The notes beneath the pieces are model-generated. The model had not been told where the DNA came from. It saw only the letters and a list, made by a program, of their open reading frames with translations, and did no database searches. 64,000 nt of DNA from Eledone cirrhosa (taxonomy: Eukaryota): NCBI GenBank assembly GCA_964016885.1, contig OZ024742.1, forward strand, positions 137,330,001-137,394,000, in the 5' to 3' direction. Position numbers and translations under genes: made by a program. Of this stretch, positions 2,121-53,725 are shown in pieces. Each line of letters begins with the position of its first letter. Position 1 is the stretch's first letter.

Positions 2121-2499
2121 TTATTAAAATAACAGATTAAAGTTGAAGCAAAGAATCGCTGCTTTCATCACTATGGGTGACAGTACCGATTCTTTACTTA
2201 AATTTTAATCTATTATTTTAATAAATATTTGTTCTATGGTTTTTATATATTTGATATATATTTATCCTTATCGACCCCTCTTAGGATTTCAGTCTTCACA
2301 TTTATTATTATTACTATATATATATATAATATATATATATATATATATAATATATATATATATATAGTAATAATAATAAATGAGAAGACTAAAATCCAAA
2401 GAGGGCTCGATAAAGATATATATATATGAAATATATAAAATCCATAGAGCAAATATTTATTAAAATATCAGATTAAAATTTAAGTAAAGAATCGGTACT
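2121..2499. mobile_element. Family A fold-back fragments in (TA)n
   Basis: 2121-2160 is inverted relative to 2182-2224; 2182-2320 is inverted relative to 2365-2499 across a TA tract; another copy at 48844-48991. Confidence 0.65.
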
Positions 2500-4068
2500 A
2501 TATATATATACATATATATATATATATATATATATATATATATATATATATATATATATATATATATATATATATATATATATATATATATATATATATA
2601 TATTTAATATAGAGTGAGAAGGAGGCATTGAAAAATAGATATAGATACAATATATTAAAGACGCATCAAAATGGACGTCTAGAATATGTCACATAAATAT
2701 TCCTATTTTAAATGTCTAATGAAGTACTACAACGTAAAATAAAATACAAAGAAGAATACGACTCACATTTTAAACAAAGAAACAAATGAAATACACCGAT
2801 TTCATCCACAAGAAACATTAAATATATATAAACTAGGTGCCATTTTTTATCTAAGTAAATCTTCTAATCCCCAAAGCTGTTCAACACATGGAATTTGAAA
2901 CATACTTTTAGTTGTAATGTGAGAATTATACGAATCATTAACGATGGCAAAGATTAGATAACCGATGTAAATGAAAAAATCGTTATAAACAAATTAAAAT
3001 AACAAGATATATAGAACATAATATTTAGACTACCATTGGAAATAATCTGACATACAAGAGAAAAGTTTACAGGCTAATATCAATGGATTGGATAAATCTA
3101 ACTACGCTGTACTTGTTAGATTTTAAATGCAGCATACAAAGATAGATATACAAACATCACTCAATGGTCATTGCAATAGACATACAAACATACACATATG
3201 CATACATTCATACATACATATATACATATATGAATGTATGGATGAACACACACATACAGACGCACTGATATATATATATATATATATATATTTATATATT
3301 TACAGAGAGATAGAGGGGTATGGAGAAAGATATATATATATATATATATATATATATATATATATATATATATATATATATATATATATAGAGAGAGAGA
3401 GAGAGAGAGAGAGAGAGAGAGAGAGAGAGAGAGAGAGAGAGAGAGAGAGAGAGAGAGAGAGAGAGAGAGAGAGGTTTAGAAAGAAAGTTTAGAAGGATAA
3501 CGTACTAGAAACGCCAGAAAAAAAATCTGTTTCAGCTACGCGGCTAGCTGAAACCTAACCTGCAAACAAGGGAAATTACTCAACTTCTGGCTAAATATAT
3601 CACCATGAGAATAGATGGCACTAAAAAGAAGAAGAACAACAAACATGTTCAGTGCATTCTCTACTATGGGAAAGTTATTGAAATCTTACCACATCTGACC
3701 AAGCTATTTGTAAAACAAACACAGTGGAATGCCATTGAGAATAGACTCAGCATGAAACAGACGTAAAATCACAAACATACGAACATCTACACAGTCTCTC
3801 TCTCTCTCTCTCTCTCTCTCACACACACACACACGCACACACACACACACACACACATATATACATATATATAAATATATATAAATATATGCGTGCGTGT
3901 TTGCCACTGTTTCTGAGCATGCATGTATATATGTATATATATTATGTGTATCTGTGTGTCTGTGTACGATTTATGTATTGGCGAGTTGCATGTTTACCAA
4001 AGACATTAACGTTTTATGTTTTCTTTTATGAAAGGAAAGCTTTCAATTTTTATGATCACCAGCCCAGT

Positions 4069-4543
4069 GGTGTGTTGCTATCTTTCACTCATTAATGCCC
4101 GCGCTCGCATACGATGAGACATTCGCATATATATATACATATATACATATATACATATATACATATATACATATATATATGTATGTGTATACACACACAC
4201 ACACTCACACACACTCACACTCACACACACACACACACACATATATATATATATATATGTGTGTGAGTGTGTGTGAGTGTGTGTGTGTGTGTATATATAC
4301 ATACATATATATGTATATATGTATATATGTATATATATATGCGAATGTCTCATCATTGTATGTCAGCGCGGGCAGTAATGAGTGATATATATATATATAT
4401 ATATATATATATATATATATATATATATATATATTTATATATATATATATATATATATATATATATATATCAATGCATGGGCATTAATGAGTAAAAGATA
4501 GTACAAGCAACTGGAAAGACCGACGAAGTTGCTTGTACTATCT
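4069..4543. repeat. Family B inverted-repeat fragments interrupted by microsatellites
   Basis: cactcattaatgcccgcgct...gagacattcgcat vs atgcgaatgtctc...agcgcgggcagtaatgagtg; hairpin gatagtacaagcaac/gttgcttgtactatc at about 4497-4542. Confidence 0.5.
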
Positions 4544-4544
4544 A

Positions 4545-4688
4545 TCGGTCGCAACTCCAGGTAGAAGGAGCAACGTGAAATAAAGTGTCTTGCTCAAGGA
4601 TATAACGCACCGCCCGGTCCAAGAATCGAACACACAACCTCAAGATTGTGAATCCAATTCTCTAAAGCCACAGCCAAACACATCTTCA
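4545..4688 (-). mobile_element. tRNA-derived SINE 5' fragment
   Basis: Minus strand has a B-box-like gttcgattc followed by ccttgagcaagacactttatttcacgttgctcc, a conserved SINE body motif. Confidence 0.7.
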
Positions 4689-51260: not shown

Positions 51261-51589
51261 AGAATAAGAGAGAGATATGAAGAAAAATGAATATAGACAA
51301 GATTAGAATAGGAAGAATCTTTAAAAGAAAATTACGGGAGGATAACATGTGTTGTTTAGTTATCCATAAAATATGTAAATTTTATAGATCAAGTACTAAG
51401 ATTATGCCTAGAGAATTTCAAGTTCAATCATGATCAATAAACATTAAACAGAATGAAAAGTTTGTCTAACATGTAATCCACATGAAATCAGGAAGTAAAA
51501 TTTGAGTTTAAAAAATCCAGGTTATTGTATGCGTGCATAGAGCATTAAAATAATTAATGTACAAGTATGATGAAGGAATATAAGACATT

Positions 51590-51975
51590 CTATTAGTCTT
51601 ACACGTGTCATTCAAAAAGAAGAAATATGAAATGAGGAAATTGAAAGAATTTCGTTTAAGCTGCATTATTGTATAAAGGAATAAAGTGATATACTAAGAT
51701 CTGAACATAAAATCAATTACTTTACCTTAACACCTATTTCCAACATACTGTTGTAACTTCAGATATATTAAAAAGTAAAAAAAATATGTAAAAGTAGAGC
51801 TCCTGCAGGAAAATATCCGAGCATCACAAGAACGTTATGATAATTCGATTTTATGCTCAGATCTTAGTATATCGTTCTATTCCTATATATTATAATGCAG
51901 CTTAAAGGAAATTCTTCCAATTACTATATTCCATATTTCCTTATGTTGAAACACAAGTAAGCCTAAATAAAATGC
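51590..51975. repeat. Old diverged inverted repeat, probable decayed fold-back element
   Basis: 51645-51720 vs 51841-51917 clearly complementary; GAAACacaaGTAagc in the right arm. Confidence 0.55.
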
Positions 51976-52413
51976 ATCCATTATTCTTATATATATATAT
52001 ATATATATATATATACATAGAGAGAGAGAGAGAGAGAGAGAGAGAGAGAGAGAGAGAGAGAGAGAGAGAGAGAGAGAGAGAGAGAGAGAGAGAGAGAGAG
52101 AGAGAGAGAGAGAGAATAACGTAACAGAATAACAGGAATAAATATTTTGCAACAATAACAAAGATATTTAATCCGTAAAGCCTTTTGGCAGGGTGCTTAG
52201 TGTGTCTTCGGTTTTGGTCATACGTACATTGCTATTATACGATAACCTTTTAGTAGAGTGTGACTGGTAATCATAGAGAAGTGACTTTATCTAGAAAGGC
52301 TACAATATATCTAATTGCCCACACTCTTATACGTGTACACTAAACTCAATTTGATCATGACATATGAATACATATATGTATGTATGCATATATATATATA
52401 TTTTTTTTTTTGT

Positions 52414-53725
52414 TTGAGTATATGTTGGTTGTATACCAACACCTCAGTATGCAGGCTGGAGCACTCGACGAAGTGCGCAGGTTGGTTTGGTTACTCCGGA
52501 GTAATGTAAAATAAAGTAAAATAAAAAGTCAAATGTTTAAAATTTAGCTTCGTTTATTACAGCTATATATATTTCGGTGACAGCCATCTTTGGCTGTGAC
52601 CTCTTCAGGCAGTCCGAATTAGTGTGGTATAGACAAGTACATATGTTGTTGAGGTGTATAATTTTGTCAATACTCTGATATGCCCAGTTCCTGGTTGGGT
52701 TGTTATTTCACTGACGAACTGGAATCATATGAATTCAAACAAACGAATTTCAGTGTCAAAGGGCCTCTTCTCCTCTCATTGGTCAGTTGTTAGAACATTC
52801 CTCATTCAAAAGTCTATAGAAGTTCGTTCTGAGGCAAGCCAATCTGTAATTGTTGTTCTTGTTATTGTTAGGTATATCTGACCTCAATTCTTGTGTTGGT
52901 AGTGTTGTTATTGCTGGAGTTAGCTTAAAAAATTGATAAAGTGGTAGAAGGAACAAGGTGGTAAAGGAACAAAATAACAAAAAAATGTCAAACTTCCCAT
53001 TGGTCAGTTTTGAGAGCATTCCTCAGTCAGAAGTCTATAGAAATTCTTTCTGGGGTGAGGCTCCCTGTAGTGTTTGTGCTTGCTATTGCAAGCACAAACA
53101 CCAATTAACCAGTAAATCACAGCGGTCAAAACCCAGATGGTCACCAAAGGAGAATATCCATCCATCTGCGTTTACACATCAAATGCAAATCTGTGAATGA
53201 CACGAACTACGTGTTGCATTTTATAAAAAATACAGACATCATCCCAGTGGCGTGAATAGGATTATCGACAGCTAGAAATAGCAGCCGAGTCCATGATAAA
53301 GACAGGTACACATGTTGTTGAAGTGTGTTTTACTCCGTCAATAAATCGATATGTCCAGCTCCTGGATGTGTTGTTATTCCGCCGAGGAACTAGAATCAAA
53401 TGGTTCCAGTTCCTCGGAGGAATAACAACACACCCAGGAGCTGGACATATCGATGTATTGATGGTGTAAAACACACTTCAACAACATGTGTACCTGTCAT
53501 TTCCACACCAATTCGGACTGCCTGAAGAGGTCACAGCCAATGATGGCTGTCACCGAAATATATATATAGCAATAATCTTTAATTTATAATAAACGAAGCC
53601 AAATTTTACATATTTGTCTTAATTATTTTACATTGCTCCGGAGTAAACAAACCAGCCTGCGTACTTCGTCGAGTGCTCCACTCTGCTTACTGAGGGGTCG
53701 GGGAACAACCAACATATACTCAAAA
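52414..53725. mobile_element. Family N HHR fold-back element with nested palindrome
   Basis: Arms 52414-52735 vs 53392-53725; additional palindrome 53301-53498; HHR in both arms. Confidence 0.8.
53519..53571 (+). ncRNA. Type I hammerhead with (UA)n stem III (family N)
   Basis: tgc CTGAAGA ggtcacagcca atga tggctgtcacc GAAA tatatata TA gca; inverted copy at 52562-52611. Confidence 0.75.

Follow-up and report, generated by a model that had tools for sequence, protein, structure and literature searches.

Penelope-like elements (PLEs) are already known to carry ribozymes, to leave inverted copies and tails and to target TA repeats. The Hydra clade is diagnosed by RWK, DKT and CxCx5C motifs, a canonical hammerhead and (TA)n targets, according to the account of that clade in Craig et al. 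(2021, PMC8557442). In vitro, the PAc Poseidon element of Anolis uses two internal reverse transcriptase (RT) start sites, which bound its tail (Frangieh et al. 2024, PMC11167929), and the mobilisation of retrozymes by PLEs has been proposed (Cervera and de la Pena 2020, PMC7229834; Li, Clavereau and Pollet 2026, 10.64898/2026.07.22.740005). We analysed the hammerhead fold-backs in 64,000 nt of the Eledone cirrhosa genome (GCA_964016885.1, contig OZ024742.1, positions 137,330,001-137,394,000 of the forward strand), hereafter the window. In our reading, to which we give a probability of about 0.7, these fold-backs are 5′-truncated insertions of PLEs and of non-coding hammerhead repeats with the same footprint, made by two-ended priming at breaks in TA repeats.

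The window was compared with a random sample of the 3.0-Gb genome, consisting of eighty 10-kb stretches at round coordinates (800 kb; some counts were made on the first 600 kb), in which TA runs make up 6% of the bases. Families are named after their window position (F2k, F4k and so on), except for E, a label kept from the original prediction, which a model had made from the letters of the window. Copies encountered in the sample, as distinct from those fetched for their family, are called chance-met. Each family has two fixed 3′ ends, called here the short end and the long end, and the stretch between them is the tail.

Two fixed ends in TA repeats

Comparison of the window with itself, with simple repeats masked, gave 25 local inverted repeats. 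In every family, the two end sites lie 28-170 nt apart, both past the predicted hammerhead cut and both on TA-like bases, and in tandems the next unit starts after the long end. Of the 57 family ends that occur within the first 600 kb, 49 are directly followed by TA, compared with 1253 of 12,000 random positions (10%), which confirms the enrichment expected from the original prediction. Likewise, TA lay within 250 nt downstream of 75 of the 113 sampled hammerhead motifs and upstream of 24, against a background of 23%. Short and long ends followed by TA numbered 29 and 23 in E, 60 and 67 in F39k, 12 and 8 in F4k, and 27 and 35 in F12k.

The combination of the two sites was examined in 161 head-to-head candidates; 19 F10k "fold-backs", which are the internal helix II hairpin, and nine F14k ones without defined ends were dropped. 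Both ends could be classed in 105 candidates, with 96 short-long, six short-short and three long-long pairs, and one of the six short-short pairs (F13k in the window) is actually long-short, split by a nested F12k. The short-long pairing holds in the retrozyme families too, as well as in chance-met copies (46 of 50, p=4e-10 against 0.5) and in long E copies with scattered junctions (16 of 17). In a reference-free census of 162 inverted repeats, which may count fragments twice, 46 had the tail on one side, both arms ended at TA in 10, a single arm did so in 15 and neither in 91; that is, 46 of the 71 with a TA-ending arm have a 20-220-nt tail on the other side. The arms of a fold-back are therefore unequal, one of them bearing the family-specific tail of about 28-170 nt. 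In summary, the predicted architecture holds in its TA flanks and its head-to-head arms with 3′ ends pointing outward, but the arms are not equivalent and many carry only half a ribozyme.

Inverted arms with TA flanks are also expected of miniature inverted-repeat transposable elements (MITEs) or of other DNA transposons that duplicate a TA target. However, the arms vary in 5′ truncation and range from 30 to 4300 nt, unequal and with a one-sided tail, unlike equal terminal inverted repeats of fixed length, and they are the 3′ ends of RT-encoding or tandem units. In addition, the single clean empty site, which corresponds to the F12k insertion in a short TA patch of the F13k tail (within 11843-13744), showed a loss of about 21 nt of target and no gained duplication. 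A DNA transposon thus has next to no chance of being the source, and for the 12 families the MITE reading is refuted, the four ribozyme-free inverted repeats of the window being set aside; the predicted identity as type I hammerhead retroelements of PLE type was upheld. The TA runs that flank F12k at this site have about 15 and 28 units, compared with 4-5 units in the empty copies, which in this one case suggests that TA runs may grow at or after insertion. No target-site duplication was seen, and the TA flanks would hide one.

Palindromes can also be created by sequencing or assembly, or by later DNA repair: long-read chimeras produce inverted duplications, and TA repeats are fragile. Since the arms differ by 0.4-4%, fold-backs are nested in one another and the ends fall at two family-fixed sites, one of each, we consider such an origin very improbable.

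Next to these stands a single priming event followed by snap-back, in which the nascent complementary DNA (cDNA) folds and is copied back into the inverted arm. The arms of one fold-back do share subfamily letters and differ less between themselves than from the reference (1.1% compared with 4.2% in E), the gaps at the arm-arm junctions centre on 0, and mini fold-backs have arms with near-equal 5′ ends, all as snap-back would predict. However, in 36 of the 96 short-long pairs the short-ended arm extends further 5′, so that neither arm contains the other; hence both arms need an RNA template, and pure snap-back is excluded for these 36. Moreover, short and long ends are equally frequent on the longer arm, and we regard snap-back as quite unlikely.

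The pairing and the 5′ junction might alternatively be inherited, if the mini fold-backs of about 200 nt (F39k, F12k) bred from their own hairpin transcripts in the manner of short interspersed nuclear elements (SINEs) or MITEs. The 5′ junctions of chance-met arms are indeed clustered: relative to the predicted cut, 41 of 48 lie 34-45 nt upstream in F39k and 20 of 26 at 36-45 nt in F12k. A few junctions recur. Against this, the junction letters mostly differ within these clusters (most of the 27 F39k junctions inspected were different), the short-long rule is kept by the long E copies with scattered junctions, and some E arms also stop at a similar place, 28-34 nt. Breeding of mini-elements is thus unlikely as the source of the rule; the clustering itself could come from pausing of the RT or from self-propagating mini-elements.

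Fold-backs composed of two families were also considered as proof of two RNAs at one break, and this was rejected. All five candidates were long + long and two were separated by TA, so they are read as neighbouring insertions.

Coding and non-coding families with hammerheads

The 12 families comprise five 3′ stubs of coding PLEs (four Hydra and one Neptune-like), five non-coding families and two unclassed ones (F12k and F14k), which corrects the original description of a mostly non-coding community. For the family E frame at 15965-16597, at least 150 scored places were obtained among 59,511 candidates, several of them in open frames of about 784 amino acids. The copies retrieved show a 3.18-kb unit, repeated in partial tandem, that contains an intact open reading frame (ORF) of 775 amino acids, RT first and GIY-YIG endonuclease last, and the endonuclease is C-terminal in all intact family E ORFs. 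One of these (P0001) carries RRVRWKAF (RWK), KADKTS (DKG changed to DKT), a CNCHLPERC linker (CxCx5C) without CCHH, and CRLC (CxxC) and CNH (CxH) around the conserved E and N. With a canonical hammerhead and insertion in (TA)n in addition, family E is a Hydra-clade PLE as judged by motifs and domain order rather than by a tree. Pfam gave no significant match for the PLE proteins, including the 775-amino-acid ORF, which was read by motif, and no informative name appeared among the 120 of 665 family E homologues listed.

The physical link of family E to a GIY-YIG ORF, as predicted, was found in the window as the C-terminal endonuclease part of that ORF (15965..16671, minus strand), which has a frameshift near 16555 and is 93% identical to the intact P0001 located elsewhere. 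Its assignment to the Naiads was not sustained. Family E shares a (TA)n bias, inverted copies and a tail with that clade, but in Naiads, as described by Craig et al. (2021, PMC8557442), the endonuclease is N-terminal, the motif is DKA and a canonical hammerhead is absent, and family E fails all three. As in the Hydra-clade PLEs covered there, including Hydra-1_Obim, a single ORF joins RT and C-terminal GIY-YIG with RWK, DKT, CxCx5C, CxxC and CxH motifs and a hammerhead, and (TA)n insertion, partial tandems, an inverted 5′-truncated copy and a one-sided tail recur. In contrast, the unit is 3.18 kb here and generally under 3 kb in that clade, the tails are 67-170 nt compared with 30-40 bp in the PLEs of the same paper, and the present genome has four or more high-copy families with intact ORFs, a family with a U4A core and a counted pairing rule.

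The other coding families were identified by what lies upstream. F39k is collinear with a Hydra-type endonuclease (CNCPDRSSC) 0.8-1.5 kb upstream in 16 locus entries, several of which overlap, and F2k continues collinearly into a near-complete Hydra frame (DKT, CNCRNWADC) at two loci. F53k, the weakest Hydra case, has a frameshifted endonuclease common to two loci. Upstream of F37k (1.2-1.3 kb, four loci) lies a Neptune/Nematis-like endonuclease in decayed frames, 40-51% identical to an ORF with a Cx4CxxC linker and CCHH; F37k is likely the 3′ stub of a Neptune-like PLE (Neptune or Nematis). Past its short end there is often a (CT)n run that prolongs its own CTCT bases and leads into (TA)n (window 36032-36200; L301-L320), possibly through slippage at priming. 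Hydra-like coding sequence makes up 2.2% of the sample.

The remaining classed families (F4k, F10k, F13k, F40k and F47k) are retrozymes, with a non-coding tandem unit of a few hundred nucleotides and one type I hammerhead. The F4k unit is ORF-free and 457 nt long, its 40 best copies are 99-100% identical, and about 80 adjacent pairs at 456-457 nt were counted, overlapping loci included. The ORF-free units of the others measure 317/286 nt (F13k), 482/487 nt (F10k), 430/435 nt (F47k) and 595 nt (F40k), with one or two tandem examples each, and F40k is based on chance-met copies because a genome search with it gave no match. As in metazoan non-long-terminal-repeat retrozymes (PMC7229834; 10.64898/2026.07.22.740005), the units are tandem, low in GC and found beside PLEs. 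In contrast to those retrozymes, they form head-to-head two-armed (TA)n insertions with PLE-type two-site ends and a Hydra-shared hairpin, and no target duplication was seen.

Sequencing runs of two other organisms contain the 457-nt retrozyme (word shares 0.74 and 0.28), so this family may be common to several species; there was no RNA run among the runs listed as containing it. More non-coding tandem hammerhead families, of about 528, 482, 311 and 467 nt, occur at L174, L198, L194 and L168; in the part downstream of its ribozyme, the 311-nt family is similar to F13k.

The families fall into two classes of end geometry: either the short end lies 13-82 nt past the cut and the tail is long, or it lies 120-150 nt past the cut and the tail is 28-55 nt. 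A hairpin of the form RYTC..T[TAC]GARY, which begins 5-11 nt beyond the short end, was found in 10 of 11 long-tail families and in none of six short-tail families, with a chance rate in shuffles of about 0.01 each. The one miss is an E copy with a small deletion, and the window E copy has the hairpin. Its carriers include three Hydra-linked window families as well as the 457-, 482- and 595-nt retrozymes. The hairpin is bulged, and its outer pairs vary as A-T/G-C and C-G/T-A. Two retrozymes (317 and 435 nt) have the different end geometry, which suggests a second driver. Hence, mobilisation by one TA-targeting PLE, as originally proposed, stands for the targeting but is too simple for the driver, in view of four Hydra families, one Neptune-like family and two end-geometry classes.

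Hammerheads were searched for with a strict type I descriptor and with a relaxed one, which tolerates an elongated helix II, a mismatched pair at the base of this helix and helix III in palindromic form. The relaxed descriptor gave 19 matches in the window (mean 0.27 and maximum 2 in 30 shuffles), of which 17 fall in 11 repeat families, in good agreement with the 15 or so readable copies predicted; the two others (1935+ and 28821+), with the lowest scores, are probably due to chance. The strict descriptor gave only three matches, and the 150 of 230 Rfam matches listed for the window did not include a hammerhead family. A complete motif in both arms was found in only six arm pairs. Many arms carry only the half from GAAA to the cut: the stubs at 5265, 5576, 7458, 14890 and 47699 and the copies at 2120-2499 and 48849 are without the CUGANGA half.

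In the 800-kb sample, 113 matches were found (4-9 in six shuffles), in 44 of the 80 stretches and in 39 clusters, which extrapolates to 4.0 x 10^5 motifs per genome, dead copies included (bootstrap 2.7-5.4 x 10^5). Eleven matches in one low-complexity satellite were taken as false; without them, the density is about 120 motifs per Mb, or 3.6 x 10^5 genome-wide, and the window has about twice the sampled density. The very large genome-wide number that had been anticipated is thereby supported. The highest literature count that we found is up to 120,000 in axolotl, obtained with descriptors that differ from ours. The minimal hammerheads of PLEs in Schistosoma and others (Cervera and de la Pena 2014, PMC4209133) are similar in their opposite-strand pairs 100-700 bp apart, truncated PLEs, U3-A8 variant, palindromic helix III and many unrelated families per genome, but number thousands per genome in that account, against an estimated 3-4 x 10^5 here, again with different descriptors.

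With positions 3, 4 and 8 left free (600 kb), C3-G8 occurred 55 times, U3-A8 18 times (part of it noise), C3-A8 once and U3-G8 never, and within one family C3-G8 and U3-A8 occurred in six and five of 12 copies. In alignments anchored by homology and restricted to copies with a YUGANRA core, two-sided changes were present at 5 of 15 pairs in F13k and 4 of 16 in F53k, values reached in 2 and 6 of 500 shuffles, respectively. The type I core, the three helices and covariation were thus found in F13k, F53k and the 3-8 pair, which bears out the predicted covariation in part, F39k failing to show it (see below). Helix II is often 26-85 nt long. The F2k core reads CAGAAGA (U4A) in 43 of 65 copies, most of the remainder being truncated there; U4C is a published hammerhead variant, and the main text of PMC3088659, figures aside, has no occurrence of U4A. 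The random sample also contained, in 600 kb, three copies of a family whose core reads CCGAAGA (U4C) and whose helix II covaries. The motifs are predicted to self-cleave.

A candidate route of insertion

The retrozymes share the one-short-one-long footprint of the PLEs, and therefore Penelope enzymes likely insert both kinds. We suggest that a Penelope RT-endonuclease would cut both strands of a TA repeat, and that each DNA end would prime reverse transcription at a different fixed RNA site. A dimer would start one copy at the short site and the other at the long site, both of them 3′ of the ribozyme, with the help of a TA match of a few bases. Each cDNA would run through the predicted cut site, so the template would be an uncut multimer or a re-ligated circle. 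Run-on copying would produce tandems, and the two cDNA ends would be joined nearly blunt, head to head. The 457-, 482- and 595-nt retrozymes may recruit Hydra proteins through the bulged hairpin that lies shortly beyond their short end. Those of 317 and 435 nt would likely depend on another clade.

This route resembles the one described for PAc Poseidon (PMC11167929), in which both strands of an AT-rich target are cut and extended, a dimer is predicted and uncut RNA is usable as a template. It differs in that the present elements end on TA-like bases and combine a short with a long end, whereas that element, from another clade, is described without target homology or strand asymmetry. The use of different sites by the two DNA ends and the presence of the same signals on retrozymes are what we would add, by inference, to the published scheme.

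Several points weigh against two-ended priming by PLE proteins. The behaviour of Poseidon in the published assays (PMC11167929), with no strand difference in the start site and no target homology, is itself one of them, and every step set out above is read from DNA. Of the candidate fold-backs, 56 of 161 were left out as unclassable, and nine of those that could be classed pair two short or two long ends. An arm has its sister as the strictly nearest copy in only 8 of 38 cases (E, F39k and F13k; the F12k rows were set aside for microsatellite matches), so the two arms may or may not stem from a single RNA molecule. Searches for empty sites gave one clean case among 95 insertions and none among 11 further candidates. 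The hairpin was found post hoc and scored in the families where it had first been spotted. Finally, the F39k alignment has a compensatory change in 0 of 19 pairs, and when 12 stretches were folded (one of them mis-cut and motif-free) the ribozyme was seldom the lowest-energy fold, which is in keeping with motifs thought to act as dimers or with protein help.

Taken together, the elements are mostly of known kinds at an unusual scale, with testable new detail in the scale, the pairing rule and the shared hairpin. Within the literature searched, outside which subscription papers and bioRxiv supplements largely lay, we found no cephalopod hammerhead census, end-pairing count or shared hairpin. 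The wider proposition, that this genome holds the record for hammerheads, with about 3-4 x 10^5 motifs in some 30 families, that its Penelope dimers are asymmetric and prime the two ends of one break at two RNA sites, and that retrozymes are sorted by driver through the hairpin, is tentative, and we put it slightly short of an even chance. A mover of animal retrozymes has been proposed in the literature, and the present genome combines young retrozymes with intact Hydra ORFs and with a candidate RNA element that both share. PLE inverted copies with a one-sided tail are described as unresolved in PMC8557442 and PMC11167929, and the short-long rule predicts a result for an existing in vitro assay. 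If the proposition is true, the hairpin would be the first RNA recognition element for retrozyme mobilisation, and F2k would supply a natural U4A hammerhead. Repeat libraries probably file many such elements as SINEs, MITEs or simple repeats; an octopus annotation reports 893 recently active unclassified SINE families (PMC13282606), which may or may not include the present elements.

Features of the window

Among the Hydra-linked families, F2k forms a fold-back at 2120..2314 (short end left, long end right), a 3′ stub of a Hydra PLE in which the core half is missing. It also occurs as single minus-strand arms with the long end left, at 2366..2499, truncated within the ribozyme, and at 48849..48992, with half a ribozyme. 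Family E has a fold-back at 7711..8175 (long end left, short end right), likewise a 3′ stub of a Hydra PLE, and a larger one at 15175..16861, in which a 5′-truncated Hydra PLE (long end left) is joined to an inverted short-ended arm, with motifs at 15467-15374 (-) and 16704-16807 (+). The long F39k fold-back (37978..39804, long end left, short end right) represents the 3′ untranslated region of a second Hydra PLE and has U3-A8 cores at 38159 (-) and 39704 (+). F39k mini fold-backs with one short and one long end lie at 5576..5761, where both arms are without the CUGANGA half, and at 14890..15082, with half a ribozyme; a related mini fold-back at 7458..7634 (long end left, short end right) also has half a ribozyme, as do two F39k-related single arms on the plus strand with a long end, at 5265..5400 and 47699..47834. 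At 52402..53725, two F53k stubs, the 3′ end of a fourth Hydra family, stand back to back with motifs at 52608-52564 (-) and 53522-53568 (+); from their 78% identity and two long ends, they are probably separate insertions. An old fold-back read from sequence at 48001..48295, with decayed hammerhead cores, is a relative of the F53k group. The Neptune-like F37k fold-back (36180..37953) contains an internal 393-bp tandem and U3-A8 cores at 36406-36372 (-) and 37729-37762 (+).

The non-coding retrozymes all form fold-backs: F4k at 4739..5101 (short end 4739, long end 5101; complete motif 4844-4914 (+)), F10k at 10782..11147 (motif 10927-10857 (-)), F13k at 11843..13744 (motifs 13342-13307 (-) and 13576-13611 (+)), F40k at 39939..40775 (U3-A8 motif 40619-40698 (+)) and F47k at 46728..47652 (motifs 46932-46899 (-) and 47476-47509 (+)). 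The left arm of F13k is split by the F12k fold-back at 11897..13137 (short end left, long end right; motif 11958-11920 (-)), which belongs to a young family. F14k is a single minus-strand arm at 14559..14830 with a motif at 14658-14609.

Four inverted repeats, at 4086-4384, 39829-39880/40917-40968, 45575-46245 and 51586-51974, gave no hammerhead match with the relaxed descriptor, scrambled type-SGC ribozymes not having been searched for, and are possibly MITEs or other PLE types; the second, a 52-nt pair, encloses the F40k insertion. A relic of another PLE type at 651-1457 (+) is 51% identical to a Penelope/Poseidon-like frame in L092, so the genome has at least three PLE types.

The window also contains a decayed long interspersed nuclear element (LINE) with endonuclease, RT and zf-RVT matches at 19755-23161 (-) and 23498-24748 (-), with an upstream frame of 416 amino acids without a Pfam match. 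Copies of another LINE-type RT element, tandem and inverted and 85-91% identical, lie at 26616-32464 (+) and 62473-64000 (-). A frame of 166 amino acids at 41803-42303 (-) has no Pfam match and presumably resembles the C-terminus of a retroelement protein. SINE-like dispersed repeats of one family, 68-97% identical and with no relation to the fold-backs, occur at 19272-19467, 23436-23526, 32283-32454, 35486-35652, 54377-54556, 56095-56182 and 62483-62680.

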